Shown here one piece after another: positions 48 to 56,252 of a DNA stretch of 64,000 nucleotides (position 1 is its first letter; every line of letters begins with the position of its first letter). Source of the DNA: Candidatus Saccharibacteria bacterium RIFCSPHIGHO2_12_FULL_41_12 (GTDB lineage: Bacteria > Patescibacteriota > Saccharimonadia > Saccharimonadales > 2-12-FULL-41-12); NCBI GenBank assembly GCA_001790445.1, contig MGCQ01000008.1, positions 90,676 to 154,675 of the forward strand. Reading direction: 5' to 3'. The position numbers were made by a program, and so were the translations under genes. The notes beneath the pieces are model-generated. The model was not told where the DNA came from. It did not search any database and saw only the letters and a list, made by a program, of their open reading frames with translations.

Positions 48-398
48 ATGAGTCGAAACGTTGGTAAATCATCATCAAAAACTTCAAAAACTCAATCCCC
101 CAAAGATGACGATAAAAAAACATTGTCAGAGATAGAAGAGCTTATTAAAACTGATGAACCAGGTTTCGCCAAAGAGGATCCATCTCCGCAAACATCGAGC
201 GAGGAAGAGGCAAAAGAAGCTATTGATCGAGCAACATTGGATACACTGCGCCCTGAGCCAGCCCAAGCAACAGGTGCAACCCCAATTGACCTCGATACTC
301 AAGGGATCAAATTTGAAGAAAATGACGCTGGGAGTGCAGATAATGCACCTTCCGTGCCACCACCTCCTGTGCCACCCCCAATGATGCCCCCAGCCTAG
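48..398 (+). CDS. hypothetical low-complexity protein (acidic, Ser/Thr-rich, Pro-rich C-terminus PPPPVPPPMMPPA)
   Basis: 116-aa ORF from the track. No motif recognised. Composition looks disordered. Confidence 0.4.
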   Translation: MSRNVGKSSSKTSKTQSPKDDDKKTLSEIEELIKTDEPGFAKEDPSPQTSSEEEAKEAIDRATLDTLRPEPAQATGATPIDLDTQGIKFEENDAGSADNAPSVPPPPVPPPMMPPA

Positions 399-422
399 AT
401 CCAGACCACAATACCTGACTGC

Positions 423-452
423 CAGCACAGCTGACAGTGCTGTATTGTTCTT
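423..452 (+). terminator. candidate intrinsic terminator
   Basis: Stem CAGCAC (423-428) / GTGCTG (437-442) followed by the T-rich tract TATTGTTCTT. Confidence 0.35.
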
Positions 453-486
453 GGCACAGAACATTATTTTCTTTTGCGATACTCCC

Positions 487-554
487 TTCACTGTACTTCT
501 GTACAGCTCGGTCTGTTTCTCAAAGAGAAATAAAGTTCTGCACTCAAGTCTGAA
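487..554 (+). repeat. intergenic repeat module M1, copy 1
   Basis: TTCACTGTACTTCTGTACAGCTCG...CTGCACTCAAGT. Hand-counted 51/68 ungapped identity to 703-770. The 5' hairpin module recurs at 38229-38252. Confidence 0.6.
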
Positions 555-664
555 CCTAGGTACAACGTAAGCTTAAGGAGGGAAAACCCAGAAAGGTTTT
601 TCGCCTCCTAGTCCGTCCTGGGAAATCAATAGATTTCTCGGTGGATCCTCCCTTTCCAAGGTTC
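552..664 (+). other. structured intergenic segment with an SD-like/anti-SD-like hairpin and a 16S-3'-end-like tail
   Basis: Closing stem GAACCTAGG (552-560) / CCAAGGTTC (656-664). Hairpin 577-608 pairs GGAGG with CCTCC. Hairpin 618-641 (AATA loop) is followed by GGATCCTCCCTTTCC. Confidence 0.35.
571..588 (+). repeat. intergenic repeat module M2 (GCTTAAGGAGGGAAAACC), copy 1
   Basis: Identical 18-mer at 20654-20671. Confidence 0.6.
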
Positions 665-702
665 TTATTTTTAATGAACAAGTAATTAAAAATAAGACAC
701 TA

Positions 703-770
703 TTCACTGTACTCTTGTATGGCTTGTTCCGTTTCTCAACAAGAAATGTTCTTCTGCACTCAAGTGCAAG
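703..770 (+). repeat. intergenic repeat module M1, copy 2
   Basis: TTCACTGTACTCTTGTATGGCTTG...CTGCACTCAAGT. Aligns ungapped with 487-554. Confidence 0.6.
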
Positions 771-838
771 AATTAGCTAACAGCACTAGTCACTCTGTGT
801 AAATTGATCTTGGTGGTGAATTTGTCGTTAATTCGTAC

Positions 839-985: not shown

Positions 986-2953
986 ATGTCAAAACCAGAA
1001 AATTTAGCACCAGGGAGCCAATTCCTACACGAGAGAAACCCCAATCTTCACGCTTCGCAAGAAGTAGAAGGCGTGGTGGGCTATTTGCGTGCTGGCGGTG
1101 AGCATACCCCAAACGAGCCAGCAGATAAGATTTCTGTTCATTTAGGCTTTCTTGCTCATAGAGAATACGTCAATGACGGCATACTAACCGGTGACCAATC
1201 GAGTATTGATCGTCAGATTGAAGCCAATGTCATTAAGGCTGAGGACGTACCGGATGGCTACTTTGAACTCCAGCGTCGTATAGCTCGTGAACAAGGACAT
1301 GGTGACGTCACTATCACCCAAGATATGCGCGGGCAAATGACTGAAGCAGTCCAGGCAGATCAGCGGGTAGGACTTGGCAAATGGGTTGAATATCTAGGCG
1401 GCGAAGATGGTGGCTATCCAGACTGGTTTAAGCACTATACCTTTGGCTCTGTTACCAAGCTTGGTGGCTATGACAAGGACAAGAGCGAATTCCTAAAGCG
1501 AAGCAAGGGTACGACTGCAGCCTACCCCGAGCTGAACCGTGAAGCCTTAGCCTATGTTTACGACGTACTCAATAAGTCAAAAGTCCAGGGCGAAAAGGTT
1601 GATGGCGGTGCCAATAACGAACAGCTTCAAAAGCTACTCGGTAATGCCAACTTTGGCAAACTGTACGCTCATGCCGTACTTGACGTTGCCCCGACCTCAC
1701 CTGAGTTACTGAAGGAAACAAAAGGCTCTTGGACTAAATTCAACCAAACTTCAGACCCAAGAACAGCCCGAAGGCTTTCAGGCTCTTTGCAGGGTCACGG
1801 TACTGGTTGGTGTACGGCTGGAGAGTCTACGGCAAATATGCAGTTGCAGGGCGGTGATTTCTACGTCTATTACACTCGTGACGAAGATGGTAAAGATACT
1901 GTTCCCCGGGTAGCTGTCCGTATGCAAGAAGGTACGGTAGCTGAAGTCAGAGGTGTCAACGCAGCTCAAGAACTTGAGCCCGTAATGGCCGACATTACTT
2001 CTGAGAGATTGCAAGATTTGCCAGGTGGCGAGGTGTACATTCGCAAGGCTGAAGACATGAAACTCTTAACTGCTATCGATAAGAAAATAACAGCCGACCC
2101 ATCTGCTGAACTGACTGGTAGTGAGCTACGGTTCTTGTACGAACTGGACCACGATATTCAAGGCTTCGGCTACGAAACAGATCCACGTATCGGTGAAATA
2201 CGGACCAAGCGTGGTGAGCGGGACAAACAAGAACTTGCCCGCGTATTACCCGAAACCATTCGCGATCAGTTAAGAGGTGCGTTTATGGCCTACAGTACTG
2301 TTGCAGAACAGCTAGGTGCTAGAGAAGTATCATCAAACGAGCTTGAGCATCTCTTTGCTCTTAAAGATAAGCAGTGGCAAGAAAACGGCGTCTATGACTA
2401 TTTGGTGGAGCAGTTGATAGAAAACGGCGCCCGTTTCAACTTAGTAGCAACTCCTAACGTGGAAGCCAGCGAACAACAAATTGTTGCACTGGCTGAAGCC
2501 TTTGGCAAAGATCAGCCATACGAAACGTACGTCTATGACGAACTATACCGCAAGGGTCGCTACACAGGTCGTGAATGGTCTGGTAACTCAGGTAATGCAC
2601 CGGTAAGGCTAAGCCTTATTCCTTCCAAAGCAGATGCTGAAATTAGCTCCAAAACCGTAGACGATCAAGTTCGAATGCTGCGAGATCGACAAGCCAAGCA
2701 GCCTGACCTACATGCCCGTGTTCCGAGCCTGTTGGATGCTGTTACCTACTGGTACAGCTTGCGAGCTGGGGGCGACAAGTTAGCCGACAGCAGTGCATTC
2801 GACAAAACCTACATTCGTCACTTTGACCTTGAGCCTAAAACGGTTGGCGGGTGGTCGATTGTTCCGCGCTCCTACGTGGACTGCGATGGCGGGCCGCGCT
2901 TGCACGGCTCGGGTGCTGGCAGTCAGGGCGGTGTTCGCGTGGCGGTGGGGTAA
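986..2953 (+). CDS. DGR target (variable) protein, 655 aa; N-terminal ~610 aa of unknown function
   Basis: Long ORF whose last 37 codons are the VR. The C-terminus ...WSIVPRSYVDCDGGPRLHGSGAGSQGGVRVAVG resembles C-type-lectin-fold VR ends. No N-terminal hydrophobic segment is visible. Confidence 0.85.
   Translation: MSKPENLAPGSQFLHERNPNLHASQEVEGVVGYLRAGGEHTPNEPADKISVHLGFLAHREYVNDGILTGDQSSIDRQIEANVIKAEDVPDGYFELQRRIAREQGHGDVTITQDMRGQMTEAVQADQRVGLGKWVEYLGGEDGGYPDWFKHYTFGSVTKLGGYDKDKSEFLKRSKGTTAAYPELNREALAYVYDVLNKSKVQGEKVDGGANNEQLQKLLGNANFGKLYAHAVLDVAPTSPELLKETKGSWTKFNQTSDPRTARRLSGSLQGHGTGWCTAGESTANMQLQGGDFYVYYTRDEDGKDTVPRVAVRMQEGTVAEVRGVNAAQELEPVMADITSERLQDLPGGEVYIRKAEDMKLLTAIDKKITADPSAELTGSELRFLYELDHDIQGFGYETDPRIGEIRTKRGERDKQELARVLPETIRDQLRGAFMAYSTVAEQLGAREVSSNELEHLFALKDKQWQENGVYDYLVEQLIENGARFNLVATPNVEASEQQIVALAEAFGKDQPYETYVYDELYRKGRYTGREWSGNSGNAPVRLSLIPSKADAEISSKTVDDQVRMLRDRQAKQPDLHARVPSLLDAVTYWYSLRAGGDKLADSSAFDKTYIRHFDLEPKTVGGWSIVPRSYVDCDGGPRLHGSGAGSQGGVRVAVG
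2839..2952 (+). other. DGR variable region (VR)
   Basis: Gap-free alignment to 3252-3365 (offset 413). 23 of 114 positions differ, all opposite TR adenines. The GC-rich 3' end GTTCGCGTGGCGG is a plausible IMH. Confidence 0.9.
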
Positions 2954-2996
2954 AACCTTTAACTTTTCTCCTTCCTTTAATTTTTATTCTTTATTT

Positions 2997-3018
2997 AATA
3001 AACTATATATAGTTTATT
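2997..3018 (+). terminator. perfect 22-nt palindrome downstream of the VR (terminator and/or DGR-associated hairpin)
   Basis: AATAAACTATATATAGTTTATT is self-complementary and is followed by GTTATTTT. It starts 45 nt after the VR end. Confidence 0.4.
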
Positions 3019-3251
3019 GTTATTTTGGGGTAAGTAGTCCAAGGTTATACCCATCGGTGCCCTAAGGTGGATGGTTGTTTGCGTTATGCCTAAAGAGACT
3101 CCTTTAGGGGAGCTGATACTTTTTATGGCAGCAAGCACGTCAAGAACCCTTATACCTCACGAATCTTCGGTAGAAGTGCCAAATGGGTGCTGAAAAAATA
3201 GAGGTTCACTAGTCATGCGTGACTGATGAAACAGGATTCTACTGAAGACTT

Positions 3252-3365
3252 AACGGTTGACAGGTGGTCGATTGTTCCGAACTCCTACGTGAACAACGAT
3301 GGCAAGCCGAACTTGAACAACTCGAATGCTGACAATCAGAACGATGTTCGCGTGGCGGAGAGGTA
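3252..3365 (+). other. DGR template repeat (TR)
   Basis: Contains 33 adenines, 23 of them substituted in the VR. Nine AAC/AAT codons in the target frame. The track ORF 3226-3477 is just its translation. Confidence 0.9.
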
Positions 3366-3381
3366 TAGGGTAATTCGGGAT

Positions 3382-3720
3382 CTATTGCACGCTTTTGAGC
3401 CAGCCACCGGTCATCCGGCGGGCTTCGCTCAAACGTGCTTGGATCTTGAGAACGTTCGTTTCGTTGACAAGCTTTAGCTCTAAAATAGCCCTGAGATGCA
3501 GTGAGGTCATCTCTGCAAGAGAGTTGGCTTTAAGCAGATAGCTTGCTTTCAGGGGTTTGGGCGCATGTTTTGCCAGAAGAAGCTGCTCCGTACAACCAGT
3601 CCAGCTCTTAATAGTCTGTTCACCAAGTGAGTAACGATATTTTCTATCAAGCTTCGTGTTGAGCTCCAGTAATTTTTTGTAAATCTCAAAGGCAATAGTA
3701 ATGACAGATAATTCTTCCAT
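3382..3720 (-). CDS. avd: Avd-like accessory variability determinant (four-helix-bundle family)
   Basis: 112-aa helical basic ORF. Its C-terminal ...EARRMTGGWLKSVQ resembles the Avd tail (Bordetella Avd ...VGRILGSWIARV). Adjacent to the TR and RT. Confidence 0.65.
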   Translation of the reverse strand: MEELSVITIAFEIYKKLLELNTKLDRKYRYSLGEQTIKSWTGCTEQLLLAKHAPKPLKASYLLKANSLAEMTSLHLRAILELKLVNETNVLKIQARLSEARRMTGGWLKSVQ

Positions 3721-4666
3721 AGATATAAGTGTAACAAACGTCTGGTTATCTTATATAGTTTTTAGAAAAGGCAAAAAATCTAGCAGGGCAATTGTTGAAT
3801 TTGAAGGCAAGCTACTGGAAAACATAATTAATTTAGCGATGAGTCTTCAAGCTGGCTCGTATCGTCACGATCCTTATTCACACAAGATCATAAAAGACAA
3901 TAAAAGGCGTGATATAGCGGTTGCGTCTGTTAGAGATAGAGTCATCCACCGTATGCTATACGACTACCTTGTACCAATTTGGGACAAAACTTTCATATAC
4001 GATGCGTGGTCTTGCCGTAAAAACAAAGGGCTTCACGAGGCTATAAAGCGCGCGCAGTTGTTTATGCGTAGATACCCGGATGCCTGGGTATGGCGAACGG
4101 ATATAACAAAGCTCTTTGACTCCGTAGATAAAAACAAGCTGAAGTTACTGCTCAGAAAACGCACAAATGACCCTACAGCACTACTGATACTGGATGAGGT
4201 TATTGACAACTACTGCAGCTATGAGAACTCCAGGGGCATCCCAATCGGTAACCTTACAAGTCAAATACTGGCGAATATCTACTTAAACGAGTTTGACCGG
4301 TTTATGAAGCATAAGTTAAAGCCGTTTGCCTATCTGAGGTACGGCGATGATTGGCTATGTTTTGCTGATAGTCAAAGCAAATTGGTCGAGATGCGTAAAG
4401 AGGCCAAAGTATTTCTTAATACTGAGCTTGGTCTGAGCATTCATCCGACTTTAGATTTGATAAAACCAGTGCGTGCAGGCGTTGCATACTTAGGCGTTGA
4501 TCTTTGGTCGAGTGGAAGAAGAGTGGATAATGCGGCGATGCTTAAGCTTAATGCTAATCTCAATGTTCGTAATGGGTCGAGCTATAAGTCCTTACTCGCC
4601 CATCACCACTCAAAAAAGCATCTTAGGAGGTTTGAGTGGATAGCATTGGAGATTATTAGCAAGTAA
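3701..4666 (+). CDS. DGR reverse transcriptase
   Basis: RT motifs: RDIAVASVRDRVIHRML, IPIGNLTSQILANIYL ([I/L]GxxxSQ, DGR hallmark), YLRYGDDWLCFA (YxDD). Confidence 0.9.
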   Translation: MTDNSSIDISVTNVWLSYIVFRKGKKSSRAIVEFEGKLLENIINLAMSLQAGSYRHDPYSHKIIKDNKRRDIAVASVRDRVIHRMLYDYLVPIWDKTFIYDAWSCRKNKGLHEAIKRAQLFMRRYPDAWVWRTDITKLFDSVDKNKLKLLLRKRTNDPTALLILDEVIDNYCSYENSRGIPIGNLTSQILANIYLNEFDRFMKHKLKPFAYLRYGDDWLCFADSQSKLVEMRKEAKVFLNTELGLSIHPTLDLIKPVRAGVAYLGVDLWSSGRRVDNAAMLKLNANLNVRNGSSYKSLLAHHHSKKHLRRFEWIALEIISK

Positions 4667-4694
4667 GGCATGCAGTATTTGGTATAGTGGGGGT

Positions 4695-5363
4695 ATGTTT
4701 AGCGAAGGGGTTCATTTGATTGATAAGCCGAAGGGGTGGACTTCTTTTGATGTGGTCAATTATATTCGCGGGATCGTAGCAAAAGACCTGGGCAAAAAGC
4801 CCAAGAATGTCAAAGTTGGGCACGCCGGCACGCTTGACCCTCTGGCCACAGGTCTTTTAATAGTGCTGGTCGGCAAAGAATTCACCAAACAGGCATCTCA
4901 ATATTCAAAAATGGACAAAACTTATGAAGTAACTATGAAATTGGGCCAAACATCTGTAACAGGCGACGAGGAGGGAGAGAAGAAAACAGTAAACAGTAGA
5001 CAGCCAACGGTAGAGGAAGTGGAAGAAGCAATTAACAAGTTCGTAGGCGCAATAATGCAGACTCCGCATAGTTTCTCGGCAATCAAAGTCAACGGTCAGA
5101 GAGCATACAAATTGGCTCGAGCGGGTAAAGAAGTCGTTATAGAACCAAGAAAAATTACAGTTTATAGCATACAGCTGACGGATTATAGTTATCCAGAGGT
5201 CAAATTCACCACCAAAGTCAGTAGCGGAACTTACATCCGCTCATTAGTAGAAGATATTGGCAAACAGCTAAAAACTGGTGCCTACATGTCCGGCCTCCGC
5301 CGCACCAAAATAGCAGACTTTTCGGTAGATAAAGCATTTATCTTTGAGAACCTCGTAAAATAG
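4695..5363 (+). CDS. truB: tRNA pseudouridine-55 synthase TruB
   Basis: GHAGTLDPLATGLL catalytic-Asp motif. Conserved truB-rpsO-pnp neighbourhood. Confidence 0.9.
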   Translation: MFSEGVHLIDKPKGWTSFDVVNYIRGIVAKDLGKKPKNVKVGHAGTLDPLATGLLIVLVGKEFTKQASQYSKMDKTYEVTMKLGQTSVTGDEEGEKKTVNSRQPTVEEVEEAINKFVGAIMQTPHSFSAIKVNGQRAYKLARAGKEVVIEPRKITVYSIQLTDYSYPEVKFTTKVSSGTYIRSLVEDIGKQLKTGAYMSGLRRTKIADFSVDKAFIFENLVK

Positions 5364-5834: not shown

Positions 5835-7976
5835 GTGAGTACAATAAACCCATACGGAAAAGAAATAATAACAGTAGAAACAGAGTTTTGTGGCCGAAAG
5901 CTAACCCTAGAATACGGACGAGTAGGCTTTCGTACCTCGGCAAGCGTTATAGTTAAATATGGCGATACAGTCGTACTTGGTACAGCGATGGTCAAAGATC
6001 AACCTGCAGAAGGTTTCGACTACTTCCCAATGTCAATCGACTACGAAGAAAAGATGTACGCAGCGGGTAAAATCAGTGGCAGTAGATTTATCAAACGTGA
6101 GGGTCGCCCAAGCGACGAAGCAGTACTTATCGGACGGCTTATTGATCGTCCTATCAGACCGTTATGGCCCAAAGGCTACCGCCACGAAGTGCAAGGTGTA
6201 GCATCTGTTATGAGCATGGATCCGGAGTTTCGACCGGATATGATTGCAATGATCGCAGTTAGTTGTGCATTGATGCTAACAGGAGCCCCATTTGAAGGTC
6301 CAGTAGCCGGCGTGCGTGTTGCGCAGATTGACGGCAAGTTTGTTCCTTTTGCTAGTAGAGAGCACTTAGACAATGGAGCACTTGATTTAGTAGTTGCTGG
6401 CACAAGCAAGGGTATCATGATGGTTGAAGCCGGAGCCAACGAAGTCAGCGAAGAAGTTGTGGCAGAGGCTCTAGACGCAGCTTTTACAGCCATACAGCCA
6501 GCAATTGAGCTACAAAAAGAGCTAATTAAAAAGATTGGGGTTAAACCTCAGGAATATACTTTGAGTCTTCCTGATGAATCTTTTCAAAAACGCGTCGATG
6601 CGTGGGTTGACGGCAAGCTTGGTGATGCTCTGAGGTCCCCATATCCGGAGAGAAACGAATTAATCGCTGATCTGCGCACCGCACTACTTGCAGAAATTGA
6701 AGCAGATGACTCAGAACATTATCAGGAACATAAGAATACATATAAAGATGCATTTACTATGGCCCTTCACAAAGATGCTAGAGCTGGCATAGTTGAGAAA
6801 CAACTGCGCCCAGATGGTCGAAAACTCGATGAAATCAGGTCACTTTCTAGTGAAGTGGGCATTTTGCCTAGAACCCATGGATCAAGTCTGTTTACCAGAG
6901 GTTTGACCCAGGCTCTTAATATAGTGACGTTGGCACCACTTAGTTATGTGCAACTTGTAGATACCATGGAAAGAAGTGGAGAAAGACGGTTCCTCCATCA
7001 CTATAATGCGCCCGGATATACAGTTGGAGAAATACGAAGACTCGGCAGTGCTGGGCGTAGAGAAATTGGTCACGGATATCTAGCAGAAAGAGCTTTATCG
7101 GCCGTACTTCCTCCAGAAGCAGAATTTCCCTACACGATTCGGTCTGTAACAGAGATAATGAGCCAAAATGGCAGTACCTCAATGGCTGCAACATGCTCAA
7201 GTTGTTTGGCTTTGATGGATGCTGGTGTCCCGATCAAACGCCCAGTTAGTGGAATTGCAATGGGGTTAATGCTCGGAGACGATGGAACACCATATATTTT
7301 GAGTGATATTGCCGACGCAGAGGATTTTGCTGGAGACATGGACTTCAAAGTTACAGGTACAGAAAAAGGCATTACTGCAATTCAGATGGATATGAAAGTT
7401 CATGGGCTTGGTGTAGATGTCTTGAAAACAGCACTTTTAAAAGGCAAAGAAGGCCGTAACTTTATATTGCAACATATGATTAGTGTTCTGGGAGCACCAA
7501 GAGACGGAATTAGTAAATTTGCCCCTCAGGTGGACAAATTGCAGATAAACCCTGAAAAGATCCGAGAAGTTATTGGTAAAGGTGGCGAGATAATCAACAA
7601 GATTATTGCCGAATCAGGCGCAGAAATAGAAATTAAAGATGACGGTTTGGTGCTAATTTCTGCCGTGAGTAGAGAAAGCATGGACAAAGCTATGCAGATG
7701 ATCAGAGTCATCACTGCCGAGCCGGAAGTTGGCCTAATTTATGAGGATTGTCCTGTGGTCAGTGTGCTTGATTTTGGCGCATTTGTGCAGATAATGCCAG
7801 GCAAAGAAGGTCTAGTGCACGTCAGCGAAATGGCAGAAGAGCGAGTATCAAAAACAACTGACTTTATCAAAGAAGGAGACAAAGTAACTGTTAAGCTGAC
7901 CGGTATTGATGATCGTGGACGTTTGCAACTAAGTATGAAAGCAGCAAAAAGAGAACGAGATGAAAAGAAGAGTTAA
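5835..7976 (+). CDS. pnp: polynucleotide phosphorylase
   Basis: 713 aa with two RNase PH-like halves, a KH region and a C-terminal S1 domain (FGAFVQIMPGKEGLVHVSEM). GTG start. Confidence 0.95.
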   Translation: MSTINPYGKEIITVETEFCGRKLTLEYGRVGFRTSASVIVKYGDTVVLGTAMVKDQPAEGFDYFPMSIDYEEKMYAAGKISGSRFIKREGRPSDEAVLIGRLIDRPIRPLWPKGYRHEVQGVASVMSMDPEFRPDMIAMIAVSCALMLTGAPFEGPVAGVRVAQIDGKFVPFASREHLDNGALDLVVAGTSKGIMMVEAGANEVSEEVVAEALDAAFTAIQPAIELQKELIKKIGVKPQEYTLSLPDESFQKRVDAWVDGKLGDALRSPYPERNELIADLRTALLAEIEADDSEHYQEHKNTYKDAFTMALHKDARAGIVEKQLRPDGRKLDEIRSLSSEVGILPRTHGSSLFTRGLTQALNIVTLAPLSYVQLVDTMERSGERRFLHHYNAPGYTVGEIRRLGSAGRREIGHGYLAERALSAVLPPEAEFPYTIRSVTEIMSQNGSTSMAATCSSCLALMDAGVPIKRPVSGIAMGLMLGDDGTPYILSDIADAEDFAGDMDFKVTGTEKGITAIQMDMKVHGLGVDVLKTALLKGKEGRNFILQHMISVLGAPRDGISKFAPQVDKLQINPEKIREVIGKGGEIINKIIAESGAEIEIKDDGLVLISAVSRESMDKAMQMIRVITAEPEVGLIYEDCPVVSVLDFGAFVQIMPGKEGLVHVSEMAEERVSKTTDFIKEGDKVTVKLTGIDDRGRLQLSMKAAKRERDEKKS

Positions 7977-8795: not shown

Positions 8796-10811
8796 ATGAG
8801 TAATCAACCAAACGAAAAAAACAAAAAGAACCAACCCAAACAAAACTCTAATAACTTAGGTCCGAGACAAGCTAGTCGAGGAGCAGCTATTCGTGCACAA
8901 AAACGCACAACTGAAGATGCCCAAAAACTGGCCAGCCAGTACTTAAATGCCAAAGATAACACTGGTGAGAGGGCAAATTTCATAGACAATAGCCCACGGC
9001 TTAAAATTATTGGACTTGGTGGTATGGACGGTGGCGGGTCCAAAAACTGCCTGTTAATAGAATATAAAAATGATGTAGTAGTTATGGACTGTGGCAATGA
9101 TCTTGGTGTTGATTTGCCGGGTATCAACTATGGTATCGCCGACATGTCATATCTTGAAACTGTAAAACATAAACTCAAAGCTTACATAATTACCCACGGA
9201 CATCTTGATCACGTTGGCGCTTTGCCTCATGTTTTACCAAAATATCCTGCACCTGTATATGGTAGTAAGTTCTCCATTGGTCGTGTAGAGGAAATTTTTG
9301 AGAATTTTGCTCTGCCAATGCCTGATGGTTTTGAGCTGAAAACTATAGCTATGAACGAAGATACACATGAGAGGCTAAAAATCGGTGATTTCTTTGTTGA
9401 GCTAGTTCGTGTGACTCACTCGATACCAGGTAGCACTTGTATTGTCTTGGATACGCCGGTAGGTCGACTTATTAATACTGGTGACTTTAGGCTTGATCCA
9501 AATCCACTTGATCATGAAAAAACAGATGTAGCTAGACTTGAGGAGCTCGGTCGTGAAGGAGTTTTGGCGCTGCTTAGTGAAAGTACCACCACAGAACGTT
9601 CTGGGCGTACTCCTAGTGAGAGCACGATAGAGCAGAGCTTTAACGACATTATGAAGAATGCTCCAGGGCGGGTGTTTATCGGACTTTTTTCAACTAATAT
9701 GAACCGAATCCAAATGCTGGTTAATGCAGCTGTTCACAATAATAAAAAGGTAGCTATGGATGGACGAAGCATGGTTAGTACTCTGGAAATGGCTGTACGC
9801 CATGGGTTTATGAAAATCCCTAAAGGGACATTTATCCCTATATCTAGTGTTGCCAGCATGAAAGATCAAGATATAGTAGTGGTCTGTACCGGCTCACAGG
9901 GTGAGCCCAATTCAGCTCTTCAGAGAATGAGCAACGGGGAGCACCAACACGTCAAACTTAAAGAACAGGACACTGTAGTGTTGAGTTCAACCCCAATTCC
10001 TGAATCTGGCAATGATGCGTTGATCGGCGATATGGTTGATCATTTTATGCGTAATAATGTCCATGTTTACAGGCATGAAACATACAGCTTGGACGGTTGT
10101 GGCCCGCTTCATGTGTCTGGTCATGCCAGTATTGATGAGTACAAAGACATGATTAATATGACTAAACCAAAATTCTTTATTCCGATATACGGTAGTTTTC
10201 GTTCTAAAAAGCGACATCTGGAAATTGCTATCGAAGAAGGCATTCCTCGTAGGAATACTTTAAACGCAGAAAATGGTCAAGTTATTGCCCTTACCCCTGA
10301 TAAATTAGAGATAATAGGTGAAGTACCTCACGGTACAATGCTGGTTGATCAAAGCGGTGAGATTGTTAGCAACGTAGTAGTTAAAGACCGGCTAATACTT
10401 GCCAGAGAAGGTATCGTGGCTGTGATACTGACTATTGATAAAAAAACAGGTGGCTTGCTAACCAGCCCTGATATCATCAGCCGAGGATTTATCTACATGA
10501 AAGACGAAGAAGAATTGATGAACGATTTTAGGGCAGAACTCCGCCGGGCAGTTTCCCAGAGGTTTAAGCGAGTTGACTTGGATAGATTTAAAGTAGAACT
10601 ACGTGAACACGTTACTCATTTTTTGTACCAAAAAACAAACCGCAGTCCAATAGTTATTCCTGTCGTTAACGTTGTTGGCGGTGGCCAAAAGCAACAACAA
10701 CAAAATAGTAAAAACCCAAACCAAAAATCAGGTGAAAACCCAGCCGACGCCCAAAAACGTTTCGCCAACATGAGAGCCAGACTTCTCAACCAAGACCCTC
10801 GTGTTGACTAG
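8796..10811 (+). CDS. rnj: ribonuclease J
   Basis: Metallo-beta-lactamase motif HGHLDHVGALP and beta-CASP architecture. Low-complexity N- and C-terminal extensions. Confidence 0.9.
   Translation: MSNQPNEKNKKNQPKQNSNNLGPRQASRGAAIRAQKRTTEDAQKLASQYLNAKDNTGERANFIDNSPRLKIIGLGGMDGGGSKNCLLIEYKNDVVVMDCGNDLGVDLPGINYGIADMSYLETVKHKLKAYIITHGHLDHVGALPHVLPKYPAPVYGSKFSIGRVEEIFENFALPMPDGFELKTIAMNEDTHERLKIGDFFVELVRVTHSIPGSTCIVLDTPVGRLINTGDFRLDPNPLDHEKTDVARLEELGREGVLALLSESTTTERSGRTPSESTIEQSFNDIMKNAPGRVFIGLFSTNMNRIQMLVNAAVHNNKKVAMDGRSMVSTLEMAVRHGFMKIPKGTFIPISSVASMKDQDIVVVCTGSQGEPNSALQRMSNGEHQHVKLKEQDTVVLSSTPIPESGNDALIGDMVDHFMRNNVHVYRHETYSLDGCGPLHVSGHASIDEYKDMINMTKPKFFIPIYGSFRSKKRHLEIAIEEGIPRRNTLNAENGQVIALTPDKLEIIGEVPHGTMLVDQSGEIVSNVVVKDRLILAREGIVAVILTIDKKTGGLLTSPDIISRGFIYMKDEEELMNDFRAELRRAVSQRFKRVDLDRFKVELREHVTHFLYQKTNRSPIVIPVVNVVGGGQKQQQQNSKNPNQKSGENPADAQKRFANMRARLLNQDPRVD
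10750..10809 (+). repeat. 60-bp perfect direct repeat, copy 1 (last 20 codons of rnj)
   Basis: Identical to 11568-11627 (offset 818). Confidence 0.95.
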
Positions 10812-10843
10812 ACAAACAACAGATAACATGGTATTATCTGACA

Positions 10844-11557
10844 ATGCGACTATCAAATACTGCGGAGTCATCGGTTCATAGTCCGACCTCTGCTTTTGGT
10901 TGGACTACTGATCCCTCTTATTTGCCTAGTTTGGACGAGGTCAGGGCCACTGAAATTTCTTTCGAAGGAAAAGAAGCTCTTCGTCAGTACTATGTACGAC
11001 CGTGGGAGACTGAAAGGTTCGAGGTCTGGACGCAAGAATTTATTGCAGGACTGAGCAAGCACATACTGTCTGGTGTTAATGTGGCGCAAGTAGAGGCACC
11101 TATGATACTAGAAGTCGGCGCAGGTGATGGCAGGCTTGCCGGGTTTCTGGGGCAGATCATTGAGTTAAGCGATCCCCAAGCAAGCGTGGTCGCGACGGAC
11201 ACAGAGCCACAACAAGGTTCTGCTTTTCCCGTCATAAGCATGGACGTGCGTGAGGCGCTTGAGGAGTACAAACCCAATGTAGTCATATCCAGCTGGATGC
11301 CTCTCGGTCATGAATGGACGAGGGACATGAGGGCTGCGCCCACAGTGAATGAGTACATAATTATAGGCGTCCCGCACATGACAGGATCTTATTCGACTTG
11401 GCACGGACCAGAGCTTGGCGAGTTCATACCCGCCGATCTAGAGCAACTTGATCAGCAAAAGATAGGACAACTCAGCGATGAGGCCATCCTTGGTTATAAA
11501 ACTATCACCCGTTCCTTCAAACGCCAGACCAAAGCTAGGCTAATTCCTGAACAGTAA
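10844..11557 (+). CDS. hypothetical protein, class I SAM-methyltransferase-like
   Basis: Glycine-rich motif I-like ILEVGAGDGRLAGFL followed by VVATD. Noticeably more GC-rich than its flanks. Confidence 0.5.
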   Translation: MRLSNTAESSVHSPTSAFGWTTDPSYLPSLDEVRATEISFEGKEALRQYYVRPWETERFEVWTQEFIAGLSKHILSGVNVAQVEAPMILEVGAGDGRLAGFLGQIIELSDPQASVVATDTEPQQGSAFPVISMDVREALEEYKPNVVISSWMPLGHEWTRDMRAAPTVNEYIIIGVPHMTGSYSTWHGPELGEFIPADLEQLDQQKIGQLSDEAILGYKTITRSFKRQTKARLIPEQ

Positions 11558-11567
11558 GCTACTAAAA

Positions 11568-11627
11568 CCCAAAAACGTTTCGCCAACATGAGAGCCAGAC
11601 TTCTCAACCAAGACCCTCGTGTTGACT
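11568..11627 (+). repeat. 60-bp perfect direct repeat, copy 2 (orphan rnj 3' end, followed by TGA)
   Basis: Identical to 10750-10809. The next base differs, so the in-frame stop is TGA instead of TAG. Confidence 0.95.
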
Positions 11628-11638
11628 GAGAAAGAGGT

Positions 11639-11667
11639 TTGACAATTGTTGTGATTTTTGCTATAAT
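11639..11667 (+). promoter_or_regulatory. consensus sigma70 promoter upstream of ftsK
   Basis: TTGACA (11639-11644), 17 nt, TGcTATAAT (11659-11667). Confidence 0.6.
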
Positions 11668-11715: not shown

Positions 11716-13935
11716 ATGGCAAAAAAGAAACATAGCAAAAAAGCTTCAAGTACAAAAGCAGACAAGCAAAAGAGTAATGTCGTGGCTAATGTTACCAGCG
11801 TGGTTCTGGTCATTATCTCTACTCTTGCCCTAGTCGGCTCTTTCCATACTGGTGGTTCTTTGCCAATTGGTTTATATCGCGGTTTTGATTGGGTTTTTGG
11901 TTGGGCATCATTTGTTGTCGCTTTTTCTATAATCTATATGGTGATTTATCGGTTTACTAGAGAAGATCAGAAATTAAATTTTAAACATCTAGCATCTATG
12001 GACATGTTTATAATTCTGTTGGCGGGGTTTTTCCATGTTTTAACTCTTCATAGCAATTCAACAACTGGCGAAAGAAGTGGGGGAAATGGCGGATTTGTTG
12101 GTGAACTAGTCGGTGGCACACTTTTTGACTATTTAGATAAATACCCATCAATTATCTTAATGTTTTTACTGTGCTTTGTGTTCTTTTTCTTTGCGTTTAA
12201 TTTGTCACTTAAAAATTTCCTTAATTTTGTGAGGAAGAAGATATTTTCAACACCAAAAGAAGATCAAGATCTGGAAAACCTCGATCAGCATGCCGGCTTT
12301 AAGCTTAACAAAGGCGTCCCTCTGGAAGACCACAGTGAAGAGTTAGCAAATAAACCAGCTAGACTTTCATCTTTTAAAAATACTGCAAAACAACTTACAG
12401 GGGCAGATGATCAACAGGCATTAACTGCTCAGAAAGATCCTGACTGGAAGTTCCCAACCATTGACTTGCTAAATCTCAAGCAGGACAAGGCTGACGCGGG
12501 AGATATTAATCAAAATGCCGATATTATCCGTGACACTCTCAGCAATTTTAGTATTAGTGTAGATATGGAGGGCGCAAATGTTGGTCCGAGGGTAACGCAG
12601 TATACCCTAAAACCTCCAACAGGTGTGAAATTAACCAAAATTACCGCGCTTGAAGACAACCTGGCTCTGGATCTGGCGGCACATTCTATTAGAATTGAGG
12701 CCCCGATACCAGGTAAAAGACTGGTTGGCATAGAAGTTCCAAACTATAAGTCAGCTACGGTGAGAATTGGTGGAGTGCTAAGTTCCGATGAGTGGACGAA
12801 CCTTAAATCTCCACTAGGATTTGTGATAGGCAAAGACATTTCAGGGACATCTATTGTGGCAGATTTGGCTAAAATGCCCCACCTTTTAGTGGCTGGTCAG
12901 ACAGGGTCCGGCAAGTCGGTTATGATCAATACTATTTTGGCCAGTTTGTTATTTCACAATACCCCAGCAGATTTAAAATTAATTTTAGTTGATCCTAAAC
13001 AAGTTGAACTGACTCCTTATGACGGCATTCCTCATCTGTTAGCACCGGTTATTCATGAGCCAGAAAAGTGTATCAGTGCTCTCAAATGGGCTATAGCAGA
13101 GATGGAGCGACGTCTAAAAACAATAGCTGGGGTAGGCAAGAGAAATATCGAAGAATATAATAATCTAAAAAAAGAAGAGGGTATGCCTTATATTGTGATT
13201 GTGGTTGATGAGCTTGCAGATTTAATGATGGTGGCAGCGCGCGATGTTGAATCATTGATTGTTAGAATTTCGCAAAAAGCCAGGGCGGCTGGTATTCACC
13301 TCATATTAGCAACGCAGAGACCAAGTGTAGATGTTATCACAGGTTTGATTAAAGCCAATGTGCCATCTCGAATTGCCTTTACGGTGGCTAGCCAAGTGGA
13401 CTCAAGGACGATTATTGACCAAATGGGGGCTAATAAATTGCTTGGTCAAGGTGATATGTTGTTTAAGGCATCAAATATGCCAAATCCTAAGAGAATTCAA
13501 GCAGCATTTATTTCGGAACAAGAGACAGCCAAAATTAATGAATTTTTGAAAAATCAGAGAGAACCGCAATATGATGACGAAATTATTTCTCAACCTGTCC
13601 AGTTAAACGGGCGGGGCGGTCTTGTAACTCATGATAACTTTGGTGGAGGTAGTGCTGATGATGATCTCTGGAAAGACGCTGTGCATGTAGTCCTAGAGGG
13701 GCGCAAGGCCAGCACCAGCTTGCTCCAGAGACGTCTAAGAGTTGGTTATGCGCGGGCAGCTAGGCTAATTGAAACCATGGAAGAACAAGGCATTGTTGGG
13801 CCGGCAGATGGCTCGCGTCCTAGAGAGGTCTTGATATCCAGCATGGATGATGTCTTTGGTAGAGAAGATGACGAAATAATCGCCGGCGGAGATAATGATT
13901 TTTCTGATTCGCACAGTAGCGCCAAAGACGAATAA
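11716..13935 (+). CDS. ftsK: DNA translocase FtsK/SpoIIIE
   Basis: N-terminal TM segments, Walker A GQTGSGKS, Walker B VVDELADLM, and a gamma wHTH domain (LLQRRLRVGYARAARLIETME). Confidence 0.95.
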   Translation: MAKKKHSKKASSTKADKQKSNVVANVTSVVLVIISTLALVGSFHTGGSLPIGLYRGFDWVFGWASFVVAFSIIYMVIYRFTREDQKLNFKHLASMDMFIILLAGFFHVLTLHSNSTTGERSGGNGGFVGELVGGTLFDYLDKYPSIILMFLLCFVFFFFAFNLSLKNFLNFVRKKIFSTPKEDQDLENLDQHAGFKLNKGVPLEDHSEELANKPARLSSFKNTAKQLTGADDQQALTAQKDPDWKFPTIDLLNLKQDKADAGDINQNADIIRDTLSNFSISVDMEGANVGPRVTQYTLKPPTGVKLTKITALEDNLALDLAAHSIRIEAPIPGKRLVGIEVPNYKSATVRIGGVLSSDEWTNLKSPLGFVIGKDISGTSIVADLAKMPHLLVAGQTGSGKSVMINTILASLLFHNTPADLKLILVDPKQVELTPYDGIPHLLAPVIHEPEKCISALKWAIAEMERRLKTIAGVGKRNIEEYNNLKKEEGMPYIVIVVDELADLMMVAARDVESLIVRISQKARAAGIHLILATQRPSVDVITGLIKANVPSRIAFTVASQVDSRTIIDQMGANKLLGQGDMLFKASNMPNPKRIQAAFISEQETAKINEFLKNQREPQYDDEIISQPVQLNGRGGLVTHDNFGGGSADDDLWKDAVHVVLEGRKASTSLLQRRLRVGYARAARLIETMEEQGIVGPADGSRPREVLISSMDDVFGREDDEIIAGGDNDFSDSHSSAKDE

Positions 13936-26459: not shown

Positions 26460-28265
26460 ATGAGCGTACTATCAGAAGAAAACCAGCAACTACTCGAGAA
26501 GTATTTGGTAGAGGAAGGCGTTATATCACAGGTTAAGCTTGAAAGTGTCAAAGAAAAAGCCAATGCAAACTCTGCGCCAATTCTGGCTACTTTGGTCGAC
26601 GAGGCACAAGTCTCGAACGAGGTCCTCACTAAACTTATGGCCAAGATCAACCATGTTCCTTACGTCAATTTACAGGATGCAAGAATAGACAAACAGGTTT
26701 TGAGGTTATTGTCTAAAGAAGTTTCACAACGTTATATGGCCGTGCCACTGGGACAAATCCAAAATAAATTAGTTGTAGCCATGCTCGACGCCGACAATGT
26801 CCAGGCAGTTGATTTTTTGTCAAGTCGTATCGGTCGTCCTCTTAAGGTTTATACCGCCAGCGAAGAAGGCATTATAAAAGTCATTAAGCAATACGACGAA
26901 GATATTGAAGCAGATGTTACTAGTACAGTTGGTAGCATATCTTCTGCTGCAACAGAAGAAGCCCAGCAGATCAAAGAAGCGGCTAATGCTCCCACAAACA
27001 GCAACATCAAGACTATTATTCAGGATTCACCGATTTCAAAAGCTCTATCAGCTATTTTGGAGTATGCGGCGCGTACACGGGCTAGTGATATTCACATTGA
27101 GCCACTTGAGCACGAGTTGAAAATTCGTTGTCGAGTTGATGGAGTACTACGTGAGATCATGAAATTACCAAAAAGCACCGAACCGCCACTTATTTCCCGA
27201 ATAAAAATTCTTAGCAATCTTAAAATTGACGAGCATCGTATCCCGCAAGATGGTCAATTTACTGTTGACGTAGAGGGTAATTTGATAGACTTGCGTATAG
27301 CTATCTCGCCTGTGATTTGGGGTGAACAAGTTGTGATCCGTCTGCTTGATAAATCAGGCACGAGCTTAAAGCTCGAAGACATGGGCTATACCGGTCGTGC
27401 TCTAAGAACAATAAAAAAAGGCGTTGCTCAATCAAACGGTATGATTTTAACCTCTGGACCAACGGGTTCTGGTAAATCAACCTCAATGTATGCGTTAATA
27501 CAGGAAATAAAAAACGACACTATCAATATAGTTACGCTTGAAGATCCTGTTGAGTATAAAATTGACGGGATCAACCAAATCCAAGTTAACGCAGAGGTTG
27601 GCTTGACGTTTGCATCTGGGCTCAGGTCTATTTTGCGTCAAGATCCCGATGTTGTCATGGTTGGAGAAATTCGCGACAAAGAGACAGCAGCTCTTGCAGT
27701 GCAAGCTGCGTTGACGGGGCACTTGGTCTTTAGCACGCTTCACACCAACTCTGCTGCTGGCATTTTGCCCAGACTTTTGGACATGGGGATAGAACCATTT
27801 TTGATTGCTAGCACTGTTAGAACTGTCATTGGTCAAAGACTTGTCAGACGAATTGCCGACAAAGACAAAGAGGCATATACGTCCTCAGGAGCTGAAAAAC
27901 AAGCTATTCTTCAAAATGTAGGTAATCTTCTGCCACCAGACGAAAAGAGTAAACTCGCGTACTGCAAAGATCTCGGTTATGAGGATTTGCCTTTGCGCAC
28001 CCAAAACGCTTATACTTTATATAAGGGCAAAGATAGCCCAGACACCCCGGGTGGCTACAAGGGAAGAATGGGATTGTACGAAGTCTTTGAGGTCAGCGAT
28101 GCGATTCAAAAACTTATAATAAATCATTCAACCAGCGCAGTTATCCAAACCCAAGCCATAAAAGAAGGCATGGTAACCATGAGGCAAGACGGTTATCTCA
28201 AAGCCTTAGCGGGGCAAACAACAATTAGTGAGATTAATAGGGTTGCAGCAGAAGATAATGCATAA
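26460..28265 (+). CDS. pilB: type IV pilus extension ATPase PilB (GspE family)
   Basis: N-terminal T2SSE_N-like domain, Walker A GPTGSGKST, and Asp/His boxes. Confidence 0.95.
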   Translation: MSVLSEENQQLLEKYLVEEGVISQVKLESVKEKANANSAPILATLVDEAQVSNEVLTKLMAKINHVPYVNLQDARIDKQVLRLLSKEVSQRYMAVPLGQIQNKLVVAMLDADNVQAVDFLSSRIGRPLKVYTASEEGIIKVIKQYDEDIEADVTSTVGSISSAATEEAQQIKEAANAPTNSNIKTIIQDSPISKALSAILEYAARTRASDIHIEPLEHELKIRCRVDGVLREIMKLPKSTEPPLISRIKILSNLKIDEHRIPQDGQFTVDVEGNLIDLRIAISPVIWGEQVVIRLLDKSGTSLKLEDMGYTGRALRTIKKGVAQSNGMILTSGPTGSGKSTSMYALIQEIKNDTINIVTLEDPVEYKIDGINQIQVNAEVGLTFASGLRSILRQDPDVVMVGEIRDKETAALAVQAALTGHLVFSTLHTNSAAGILPRLLDMGIEPFLIASTVRTVIGQRLVRRIADKDKEAYTSSGAEKQAILQNVGNLLPPDEKSKLAYCKDLGYEDLPLRTQNAYTLYKGKDSPDTPGGYKGRMGLYEVFEVSDAIQKLIINHSTSAVIQTQAIKEGMVTMRQDGYLKALAGQTTISEINRVAAEDNA

Positions 28266-28277
28266 AGAAAAGGTGGA

Positions 28278-29348
28278 GTGATGAGCAGCGAACTTAGGAT
28301 AGAACTTTTACTAGAAGAAGTAGTCAAGAACAAGGCTTCAGATCTGCACCTGCAAGTTGGTCTTCCGCCAATGATTCGGATTGACGGGGCTCTCAAACCG
28401 TCAACTAGTGGCAGCGTACTCAAAGAAGCCCAAGTTGAATCATTAATTTTCTCAATTCTGGATGATGAGCAAAAACAAATTCTGCTAAAAGACAAAGAAT
28501 TTGATTTTAGCTTTAGTTTTGGTGATCTTGGGCGATTCCGTGTCAACGCTTTTCACGAAAGAGGAAATTTGGCTGCGGCCCTTAGGCTAATACCTAATGA
28601 AATGCTAAGTGTTGAACAACTAGGCCTGCCAAAAATAATTAATAAATTTGCTGAATATCCAAGGGGCCTTGTGCTTATTACGGGGCCGACAGGTTCGGGT
28701 AAATCGACGACTCTAGCTGCTCTTATTCATAAAATTAATACAGAACGCGCTGCGCACGTAATAACTATCGAAGATCCAATCGAATTTACGCACAAAAGCG
28801 CCAAATCAGTCATTGTCCAACGTGAAGTTCACTACGATACATACTCATTTTCGGCGGCGCTTAGAAGCAGTTTGCGTCAAGATCCAGACGTGGTGCTTAT
28901 CGGTGAGATGCGTGACCTTGAAACGATTGCAGCTGCAATAACTATTGCAGAGACGGGGCACTTGGTCTTTGCTACACTTCACACCAACTCTGCTGCGCAG
29001 AGCTTGGACCGCATGATAGATGTTTTCCCGCCACATCAACAGCCACAAATAAGGGCGCAGCTCAGTAATATTTTGATGGCTATTTGTTGTCAGAGACTAG
29101 TTCCTTCTATCGGTGGCGGACGAGTTGTCGCCTCAGAGATTTTGATCGCAAACCCAGCTGTAAGAAACATCATCCGTGAAGGCAAAGGGCATCAGCTCGA
29201 TGCAGTTATTCAGACGGGTGCAGAGTTTGGTATGCAGTCGATGGACAAAACACTTGTCAATTTGATTCATGCGGGTACTATCACTTACGATGAGGCGCGA
29301 ATTGTTGCAGTTGATCTTGATGAACTAGATAGACTTATGAGAGGGTAA
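28278..29348 (+). CDS. pilT: twitching-motility retraction ATPase PilT
   Basis: 356 aa with GPTGSGKSTTLAA and AHVITIEDPIEF. Confidence 0.95.
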   Translation: MMSSELRIELLLEEVVKNKASDLHLQVGLPPMIRIDGALKPSTSGSVLKEAQVESLIFSILDDEQKQILLKDKEFDFSFSFGDLGRFRVNAFHERGNLAAALRLIPNEMLSVEQLGLPKIINKFAEYPRGLVLITGPTGSGKSTTLAALIHKINTERAAHVITIEDPIEFTHKSAKSVIVQREVHYDTYSFSAALRSSLRQDPDVVLIGEMRDLETIAAAITIAETGHLVFATLHTNSAAQSLDRMIDVFPPHQQPQIRAQLSNILMAICCQRLVPSIGGGRVVASEILIANPAVRNIIREGKGHQLDAVIQTGAEFGMQSMDKTLVNLIHAGTITYDEARIVAVDLDELDRLMRG

Positions 29349-51728: not shown

Positions 51729-52082
51729 TCAGACTATTGGCTGATCGCCCCGCCATAGGTGGGGAGGAAAGTCCGGGCAGCATATGAGGAGGGCAGTTGC
51801 TAACGGCAACCGGAGGAGACTCTAGGGAAAGTGCCACAGAAACTAAACTACCTCTGTTTACAGAGGAAAAGGTGAAAAGAGTGGGGTAAGAGCTCACAGC
51901 TGTCTATGGTGACATAGACGGGAGGTAAACCCTGCCTGCTGCAAGGAGAGAAACGAGCATTAAAGTTCCTCGCTGTTTGTTTCTCATAAGACCCGCTTGA
52001 CCCTAATGGCAACATTAGGGCTAGATAGATGATCAGCCCCCCGACTTGTCGGGGGACAAAACCCGGCTTATAGATAGTCTGA
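51729..52082 (+). ncRNA. rnpB: RNase P RNA, bacterial type A
   Basis: GAGGAAAGTCCGGGC (P4 5' strand), ACAAAACCCGGCTTAT (P4 3' strand), P1 TCAGACTAT/ATAGTCTGA, P2 GGCTGATC/GATCAGCC, GGTAAACCC. Confidence 0.95.
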
Positions 52083-52087
52083 TAATT

Positions 52088-55922: not shown

Positions 55923-56252
55923 ATGAATAAATTCATACTAGTTATCTCATTAATATTACTTGGGATCATGGCAGTTTCTATCAGTCCAGATGAGATAAAA
56001 ATGGCTCAACTTATGACTATACTAGCGTTAATTTTCTTTCTACTGGTCAGTGCCCTAGATATAGTTTTAAAATATGTATTTGGTAGCTCAAGAAAAACAA
56101 CGGTGGGGGCTTTTATATTGACATTATATATATGGCTAGCTTTAGCCATGCAATCCATCGGCTCAGGGTCGATAAAGGACATTGTAATTTTTAGTTGTGT
56201 ATTCTTGATAGCGTTTTTTTACGTTAAACAAAATTTTGAAGCTACAAAATAA
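55923..56252 (+). CDS. small polytopic membrane protein
   Basis: ATG 55923 preceded by AAGGGGA. ~110 aa with 4 hydrophobic segments. The track start TTG 55806 is unlikely. Confidence 0.55.
   Translation: MNKFILVISLILLGIMAVSISPDEIKMAQLMTILALIFFLLVSALDIVLKYVFGSSRKTTVGAFILTLYIWLALAMQSIGSGSIKDIVIFSCVFLIAFFYVKQNFEATK

Follow-up and report, generated by a model that had tools for sequence, protein, structure and literature searches.

In Neisseria, minimal mobile elements are exchanged through crossovers in the two genes that flank them, and nothing is duplicated. Cis-mobilizable elements (CIMEs) derive from integrative and conjugative elements (ICEs), and depend on the cognate integrase. In Escherichia coli, the icd gene extends into prophage e14, and a C-terminal pseudogene, icdC, is found at the far end (PMC13626634). 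We have analyzed a comparable layout in a stretch of 64,000 nucleotides, hereafter the window, of Candidatus Saccharibacteria bacterium RIFCSPHIGHO2_12_FULL_41_12 (assembly GCA_001790445.1, contig MGCQ01000008.1, positions 90,676 to 154,675 of the forward strand). The 3' end of rnj, the gene for RNase J, is duplicated in direct orientation, and the two copies enclose a single methyltransferase-like gene, denoted X. The insertion is probably a recombinase-less cassette, carrying a copy of the rnj tail and integrated by homology-guided Campbell-type recombination. Patescibacteria (the candidate phyla radiation, CPR) have tiny genomes with few recognisable mobile elements and a gene content varying by lineage, and gain of single genes is poorly documented in them. 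The locus preserves such a gain unusually well, as the homology derived from the donor, that derived from the host, the junction and a second, independently evolving copy can all be read. Its features are as follows.

8796..10811, plus strand: rnj, intact, encoding RNase J (671 aa; from the list of open reading frames (ORFs), with Pfam matches RNase_J_b_CASP, 2.6e-40, and RNase_J_C, 8.4e-25)
10750..10809, plus strand: direct repeat copy 1, attL-like, the real rnj 3' end, of resident type (closest tail in the nearest relative, L010)
10809..10837, plus strand: promoter-like site of X (TAGACA, 17-nt spacer, TATTAT, upstream TG), with 10/12 matches to the sigma-70-like consensus
10820..10840, no strand assigned: palindrome CAGATAA-N7-TTATCTG inside the X promoter, a hairpin in the predicted fold
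10844..11557, plus strand: cargo gene X (237 aa), the only long ORF in the 758 nt between the repeats, with the motif LEVGAGDGRL
11540..11567, plus strand: diverged left part of the second rnj-tail copy, read as LIPEQ-stop-ATK(T) in the X frame
11568..11627, plus strand: direct repeat copy 2, attR-like, a displaced rnj pseudo-tail, of resident type
11639..11667, plus strand: ftsK promoter TTGACA-17-TATAAT (12/12 consensus matches), chromosomal, conserved in relatives and marking the right-hand host flank
11716..13935, plus strand: ftsK (739 aa), conserved as the next gene to the right of rnj

The repeat is perfect over 60 nt (10750-10809 = 11568-11627), with a start-to-start spacing of 818 nt and 758 nt in between. 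No perfect repeat elsewhere in the window is as long, and exact direct repeats of at least 18 nt within 6 kb are nearly absent from 539 kb of related loci. An earlier, sequence-only reading of this DNA had reported the repeat and the TAG and TGA stops that follow its copies in the same frame, and both were found as described. The same reading took copy 1 as the last 20 sense codons of rnj. It is indeed the rnj 3' end, but its exact content is 2 nt of an Ala codon (from the second base), the last 19 sense codons and the T of TAG. Copy 2 is followed by GA, which makes a TGA stop at 11627-11629 in the register of copy 1, and then by 9 nt and the ftsK promoter. This right flank (stop, about 10 nt, ftsK promoter) resembles the empty site of relatives, and the promoter motif directly follows the rnj stop in L014, L016, L020, L023, L026, L028 and L047.

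The arrangement is not an assembly artefact, because the same sequence was recovered, base for base, in independent assemblies from several samples. Contigs named k141 are among them, a name which hints at assembly with k-mers exceeding the repeat in length. Among strains of the window species, the only difference is the presence or absence of one CAA (Gln) codon at 10691, in the rnj linker. The C-terminal tail encoded by rnj, QKRFANMRARLLNQDPRVD, is followed by TAG and is conserved in 30+ Saccharibacteria. Saccharibacterial RNase J features a low-complexity linker rich in Q, N, K and P beyond the Pfam C-terminal domain (window 10680-10811; rnj tails L005-L048), and, after it, a strongly conserved terminal peptide of 19 aa, QKRFAxMRxKLLNQDARxD, which is probably a short interaction motif. 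No significant RNA structure was found in the tail or at the junction (z scores from -1.4 to -1.8).

Prophage e14 or phage 21 in icd is the closest analogue in layout. In both cases the insertion is in the 3' end of a housekeeping gene, which remains intact, and a C-terminal pseudo-fragment is displaced (icdC there, copy 2 here). The duplicated prophage ends are direct repeats allowing excision (PMC13626634), and those found here might serve the same purpose. e14 differs in measuring about 15 kb, and in having its own integrase and excision functions and a defined att core. The unit in the window measures 758 nt, carries one cargo gene and no recombinase, and has host-type boundaries that differ between hosts. 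Campbell integration of non-replicating circles, such as suicide plasmids, similarly involves a target, an insert, duplicated homology and chimeric repeats, but here the process would be natural and recurrent across species, with about 60-90 nt of species-diverged homology and a putative circle. As in CIMEs and other att-flanked non-autonomous islands, cargo without recombination genes of its own lies between attL-like and attR-like repeats at the 3' end of a gene; unlike in CIMEs, the repeats behave as homologous tracts, not as site-specific ones. With the minimal mobile elements of Neisseria the locus shares two conserved genes (here rnj and ftsK) which bracket varied cargo or none, the lack of mobility genes and the natural competence of the bacteria; it differs because only one flank, the rnj tail, was used, and was duplicated. 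Integron gene cassettes are also single-gene units at a fixed chromosomal position, but the window unit has its own promoter, and no attC, and no IntI was recognised nearby. The insertion is filed here as a recombinase-less single-gene unit with gene-end homology as attachment site.

The same cassette was found in a second genome, represented by L006 (a contig of 1.8 kb, from SRR30681676); the X proteins of the window and L006 are 87% identical. The position, the 818-nt spacing and the right-hand junction, CCTGAACAGTAAGCT, are identical to those of the window. Nucleotide identity between the two genomes is 67% in the rnj body, 80% in tail copy 1, 91% in the 34-nt promoter region, 92% in X and 77% in tail copy 2; the downstream flanks are unrelated, and that of L006 is not ftsK. 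The X genes differ by a dS (synonymous divergence, Nei-Gojobori) of 0.156, with an omega of 0.42. Synonymous sites of the rnj segment are saturated (proportion of differing sites, pS, 0.81), as they are also between the window and its closest relative, L010. Because of this contrast in synonymous divergence, the sequences indicate that the cassette moved horizontally, long after the hosts diverged, and that transfer between genomes was recent. The sequence-only reading had described a single event in one genome; this view has been abandoned, since the same cassette occupies the same site in the deeply diverged L006, with repeats 90% identical. The gene that follows the second tail in L006 (1359-1835) is an ORF with a GC content of 0.43, as compared with 0.52 for the L006 rnj fragment, and may be a further gene inserted in the same gap.

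Tail copies are alike within a genome (60/60 in the window, 54/60 in L006) and differ between genomes (46-48/60), and at 10 sites the two L006 copies have the same base, which is not that of the window. The flanking tails are thus host-specific, and the cassette between them is shared. The L006 pair is about 10% diverged; at that age, finding no differences in 60 nt has a P of about 0.002, and the window repeats are therefore either younger than the L006 pair or homogenised, two cases that the data cannot separate.

The DNA derived from rnj after X is not limited to the perfect repeat, and measures about 90 nt, reaching some 28-30 nt to the left of the 60-mer. The left part was compared over 11540-11569, i.e. 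30 nt, of which 2 nt overlap the 60-mer. In the X frame it reads LIPEQ, a stop, and ATKT, continuing into QKRFANMRARLLNQDPRVD and its stop, and the segment 11540-11567 supplies the last 5 codons and the TAA stop of X. It aligns in register with the rnj tails of several relatives (KLTPQQQAAKT in L011; KTPEQEA in L013, L023 and L038). The match to L011 rnj is 21/30, which exceeds those of all 58,047 out-of-register windows (maximum, 18), and the match to the rnj of the window itself is only 12/30. Because of this difference, the last five codons of X and the TAA (a mutated CAA or GAA codon) are taken to stem from the rnj tail of a former host. The 60-mer, on the other hand, is of resident type: of 34 tails compared, the one closest to it belongs to L010, the nearest relative (47/57 nt, 18/19 aa). 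Copy 2 is thus a collinear, in-frame mosaic of a foreign and a resident tail, and such a collinear, in-register mosaic implies that homologous tails paired, rather than being joined at random. The first 21 nt of the left part (to 11560) are common to the L006 cassette. Host-type sequence starts after GCT in L006 and after ACTAAAA, 7 nt later, in the window, though later conversion could blur a fixed core.

In a model of what may have occurred, 10810-11567 would be a small non-autonomous cassette made of its own promoter, X and an in-frame-fused copy of the RNase J tail from an earlier host. Its tail copy would recombine with the resident rnj tail, guided by their homology, and so bring the cassette into the chromosome. 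A circular form may have been inserted by a Campbell-type single crossover; equally, natural transformation with a linear tail-X-tail fragment could yield the same product through alternate pairing. The product would be rnj with its intact tail, TAG/promoter, X, the pseudo-tail with TGA and the ftsK promoter, so that rnj is undisrupted and X would be expressed from its own promoter. The duplicated tails would be recombination substrates, as analogues of attL and attR. Perfect identity over 60 nt may result from conversion of a heteroduplex, from later gene conversion, or from a donor tail already of resident type. Excision under this model would give an empty site with the junction ...GAAAACCCAGCCGACG + 60-mer + GAGAAAGAGGTTTGACA, and a circle with the junction ...CAGTAAGCTACTAAAA + 60-mer + AGACAAACAACAGATAAC. 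The circular intermediate, the dependence on RecA, the route of uptake and the timing are inferred, as are the capacity for excision and the biochemical role of X.

Several traits of Campbell-type integration are found at the locus: direct repeats duplicate the target homology, the target gene is intact, and at least one repeat, copy 2, is a chimera of donor and recipient. Cultured Saccharibacteria are naturally competent, and linear DNA is integrated by homologous recombination with arms down to 221 bp (PMC10633639). Transformation can reportedly create duplications through alternative repeat pairing (PMC3784515). The sequence-only reading had already invoked Campbell-type integration of DNA with about 60 bp of rnj homology. 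Its core is retained, as the mosaic of copy 2 argues that the incoming DNA carried homology to rnj; the homologous stretch measures about 90 nt, and a single reciprocal crossover is insufficient alone.

Some observations weigh against integration through the tail. After a single reciprocal crossover, the right half of copy 1 should be of cassette type, as the reciprocal chimera. No such chimera is found: copy 1 is of resident type over its whole length, and so are both 60-mers. A conversion step, or an identical or conspecific donor tail, must therefore be assumed, and for the same reason perfect identity is no proof of recency. Homology of 60-90 bp is near the reported lower bound for Campbell integration (e.g., about 70 bp in Bacillus subtilis), and tails of different species are on average 65% identical, with longest exact matches to the 60-mer of 12-15 nt, which is poor for RecA. 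The architecture is known in two genomes only, plus one distant analogue. Neither an empty site nor a circle junction was found in assemblies with the exact RNase J, X and FtsK proteins of the window species, as every contig carries the insert; the contig L086 ends inside X. The reversibility that the sequence-only reading envisaged is accordingly putative. For the L006 lineage, no empty site was found either, as the closest rnj fragments led to L091, an L005/L048-like locus, which is uninformative. X homologues in L009 (65% identity) and L005 (56%) lie between rnj and ftsK, with no second tail. The L005 cassette promoter begins 35 nt beyond the rnj stop, preceded by intergenic DNA of host type that is also found in L048 and L091. 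The L009 and L005 insertions may be older or differently formed, or may represent the arrangement that gave rise to the tail-bearing cassette; older residence followed by decay could explain part of the pattern.

Site-specific integration is an alternative we regard as unlikely. The unit would be a CIME-like or satellite remnant, and its attL and attR would be read by a tyrosine or serine integrase encoded elsewhere (phage, ICE or chromosome) and targeting the rnj tail. The use of the same target gene end in two genomes otherwise saturated in divergence would fit, as would the sharp bounding of the identity segment by unrelated arms on both sides, the resemblance to e14 in icd (PMC13626634), and a cross-species tail identity too low for efficient RecA pairing. 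No integrase-like gene, however, was recognised in the cassette, among its neighbours or in 27 rnj-ftsK gaps, the latter judged from ORF lists and no domain search. The neighbours inspected were those encoding PNPase, UDG, RNase J, FtsK, S6 and SSB, plus ORFs of 86, 324 and 288 aa without Pfam matches. The different start of host-type sequence in L006 and the window is more in keeping with variable points of crossover or conversion than with a fixed core, a core that later conversion could have blurred, and X homologues were not found in the viral and phage collections IMG/VR and INPHARED. An integrase-type element proper (prophage, ICE or CIME) was discarded, as no recombinase gene was recognised in or next to the cassette, and a phage or plasmid origin of X was discarded as well, as IMG/VR, INPHARED and PADLOC gave no match and PHROGs noise only.

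In another scheme, to which we assign a similarly small probability, X was joined to an rnj tail in one illegitimate event (homology-facilitated illegitimate recombination, or template switch in replication), and then spread among related genomes by double crossover only. Intragenomic gene conversion would keep the tails similar, and neither a circular nor an att-like cycle would be involved. The identical junction and spacing of the window and L006 point to a single origin of the architecture, the 10% divergence of the L006 copies is as expected for a neutral pseudo-tail, and L009 and L005 have X at the locus with no duplication. The duplications reportedly made by alternative repeat pairing in transformation (PMC3784515) would also suit this scheme. 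Long flanking homology cannot have carried the cassette, however, since the two genomes have just 67% identity in the adjacent rnj body, and their right flanks are unrelated. The tail is the sole shared homology, so this scheme returns to tail-mediated insertion.

An insertion of transposon type, with an exceptionally long duplication of its target site, is hardly credible, and so is an artefact of assembly. Flanking repeats are host-type in each genome, as a target duplication would be, and the contig L062, described below, ends inside its second repeat. Between the window repeats, however, only one ORF was found, with no recombinase, no transposase and no terminal inverted repeats; 60-67 nt far exceed known target duplications, and the leftward extension of copy 2 as an in-register foreign rnj tail is not producible by a staggered cut. 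The agreement among assemblies, k141 contigs included, speaks against an artefact. The other option of the sequence-only reading, cassette capture with duplication of the target, was dropped on the same ground, as a staggered cut does not predict the foreign tail in copy 2.

Additional known systems were compared with the locus, and set aside. An insertion sequence or DDE transposon was rejected on the lack of inverted repeats at the ends and of a transposase, and on the repeat length of 60-90 nt. The window tail contains an imperfect palindrome that, as in integron attC sites, ends in AAC and GTT, but it is absent from L006. The ATAA-N7-TTAT core of the promoter palindrome recalls the dif sites used by Xer (integrative mobile elements exploiting Xer, IMEX), but this palindrome lies within the cassette, away from the junctions, and has no conserved counterpart in L009 or L005. 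The repeats are not the variable and template repeats (VR and TR) of a diversity-generating retroelement (DGR), having 0 mismatches in the window, and six mismatches in L006 which are not A-specific. A read-through fusion of X to the RNase J tail would keep the frame in the window, but would be interrupted in L006 by a second in-frame stop, and identity at synonymous sites is not explicable by selection on the protein. The TAG was also considered as an element-borne stop travelling with the cassette; it is more simply viewed as part of the -35 box TAGACA.

To look at relatives, one genome per GTDB species was scanned, which gave 39 Saccharibacteria rnj loci, 30 of them on contigs covering the rnj 3' end. 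X is encoded in none of the 39 loci, and a second tail copy was found in none of the 30, including L010, whose RNase J is 92% identical. X has a GC content of 0.504, and of 0.489 at third codon positions (GC3), as compared with means of 0.416 and 0.368 (z 3.1 and 2.6), and ranks first for both among the 47 window ORFs of at least 150 aa. The GC richness seen by the sequence-only reading in a spot count is therefore stronger than it had appeared. Only about 10 word-sharing X homologues were found among 5.8 billion proteins, and the matches listed in a metagenome scan include only distant homologues. X is foreign, because it tops GC and GC3, is absent from 30 relatives, and has a dS of 0.156 against saturated rnj synonymous sites. 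The claim that one foreign gene was gained with rnj left intact is borne out by the same data.

An ancient duplication, vertically inherited and subject to concerted evolution of the repeats, is very improbable. It would account for a second lineage with the same arrangement and diverged repeats, and for the insertion in all assemblies of the window species. In L010, which does not carry X, a 17-nt stretch at 6392-6408, AACAGATAACAGGGGAT, matches the X promoter at 15/17 positions, with an ATG downstream where the alignment places the X start codon; it lies between a minus-strand cargo ORF (6010..6378) and the ftsK promoter. The match has a p of about 0.02 for that locus, uncorrected for the 26 loci tested, and may be either the scar of a lost cassette, as vertical descent would have it, or due to chance. 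Vertical descent is strongly disfavoured, however, by the low dS of X against the saturation of rnj, seen even between the window and its closest relative, by the 30 relatives with neither X nor a second tail, and by the foreign composition that X retains.

Transcription of X may start from the promoter-like site described above, whose -35 hexamer overlaps the rnj stop codon. The -10 hexamer ends just 6 nt before the ATG, which suggests that the X mRNA may be leaderless or have a short leader. This layout is common to the X homologues in L006, L009 and L005. The palindrome inside the promoter, a possible operator, is found in L006, and not in L009 and L005.

The single ORF of the insert (10844-11557, in 758 bp) and its methyltransferase-like motif, LEVGAGDGRL, both reported by the sequence-only reading, have been corroborated, and the AlphaFold2 (AF2) model of the fold agrees. 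The model (pLDDT 90, pTM 0.87) predicts that X is a class I S-adenosylmethionine (SAM)-dependent methyltransferase fold, with a Rossmann-like seven-strand fold, the glycine loop of motif I and the acidic residue after strand 2. The top Protein Data Bank (PDB) matches listed by Foldseek are SAM methyltransferases, with TM-scores of only 0.4-0.5. In the X family the motif I LEVGAGDG and the VVATD sequence are invariant or nearly invariant. Residues 231-237 have a mean pLDDT of 57, and this low confidence is consistent with C-terminal residues predicted to lie outside the fold. No Pfam family scores above threshold (the best, Methyltransf_16, reaches 13.6 bits, the cutoff being 21), nothing meaningful was found in NCBIfam, no PADLOC model matched, and PHROGs matches were noise. 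Members of the family give only weak and mixed methyltransferase matches in Pfam. A profile search retrieved 1,941 representatives of 50%-identity clusters at E<=1e-3, and 340 at E<=1e-30. The family is sizeable and uncurated, and the locus thus marks a methyltransferase-like family of at least 1,900 sequence clusters lacking curated annotation.

The synteny of rnj and ftsK is conserved, and the interval between them is variable. Gaps measure 240 nt or less in 8/27 loci, where the ftsK promoter is found directly after the stop. The remaining gaps host unrelated ORFs, on either strand, up to 2.6 kb; none is recognisably an integrase, as judged from lists of ORFs and no domain search. Conserved flanks, differing cargo and no mobility genes recognised in the lists of gap ORFs are the marks of hot spots of the minimal mobile element type, and the rnj-ftsK interval is an accessory-gene hot spot. 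The gap of L018 (6229-8229) holds a homologue, 71% identical, of the target protein of the window DGR described below; the same accessory gene is thus found at different places in related genomes.

Direct repeats mark other X-family loci. In L062, which belongs to a low-GC genome, an X homologue of 271 aa (3923..4738; 29% identity) resides downstream of an ATP-grasp gene. The last codons of the latter, KILKALGR, recur at the X stop (repeat 3798-3830 / 4729-4754; 20 nt exact, 26 nt with mismatches), so that the repeat supplies the stop codon of the X homologue; the contig ends within the repeat. In L057, an X homologue (78..821) and a minus-strand ORF for a membrane protein lie between the two copies of a perfect 30-nt direct repeat (29-58 / 1412-1441), made of a GC-rich terminator-like hairpin, CCCCGCCCCTCTGGGGCGGGG, plus AGCTTCATT. 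This repeat could be a duplicated terminator or an element akin to repetitive extragenic palindromic (REP) sequences. No protein-level remnants of tails were found after other X homologues, except in L062. In all, flanking repeats were found at 3 or 4 of about 33 X-family loci, against 0/~30 control rnj loci, a difference that is suggestive, though not statistically secure.

Since L062 is an independent case with a different target, in which the stop again comes from the repeat, and L057 is a third locus, X-family genes might be an unrecognised class of recombinase-less selfish cassettes in the CPR. Each would end, with no stop of its own, in the captured 3' end of a conserved host gene. This end would serve as a portable attachment site, by which the cassette inserts at the same end of that gene in each new host and duplicates it. 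We put this forward as a long shot. If the mechanism proposed for the window were general, about 60-90 nt of a conserved gene end would carry a gene between species saturated at synonymous sites, with no integrase, and the rnj-ftsK interval would be a natural landing site, usable for engineering cultivable Saccharibacteria.

The window also hosts a genuine DGR (986-4666), and genes for structural RNAs.

986..2953: DGR target ORF (655 aa, GC 0.50, no Pfam match); the VR corresponds to the last 114 nt, 2839-2952
3252-3365: DGR TR, 80% identical to the VR; at nearly every mismatch the downstream copy has an adenine
3382..3720, minus strand: weakly bAvd-like ORF
3701..4666: DGR reverse transcriptase (RVT_1, 5.9e-16)
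38057, 40558 and 43408: three tRNA genes, Arg-CCT, Asp-GTC and Val-GAC
51729-52086: RNase P RNA (class A)

A non-coding direct repeat of 63 nt, 79% identical (487-549 / 703-765) and with no Rfam match, is found upstream of the DGR target gene. The region 54800-56200 is very AT-rich, with a GC content of 0.25-0.31 as compared with 0.41 for the window. A repeat of 45 nt, 91% identical, is found at 27713-27757 and 28952-28996, 1,239 nt apart, and by eye looks like a conserved motif of two neighbouring paralogues of PilT/PilB-type ATPases.

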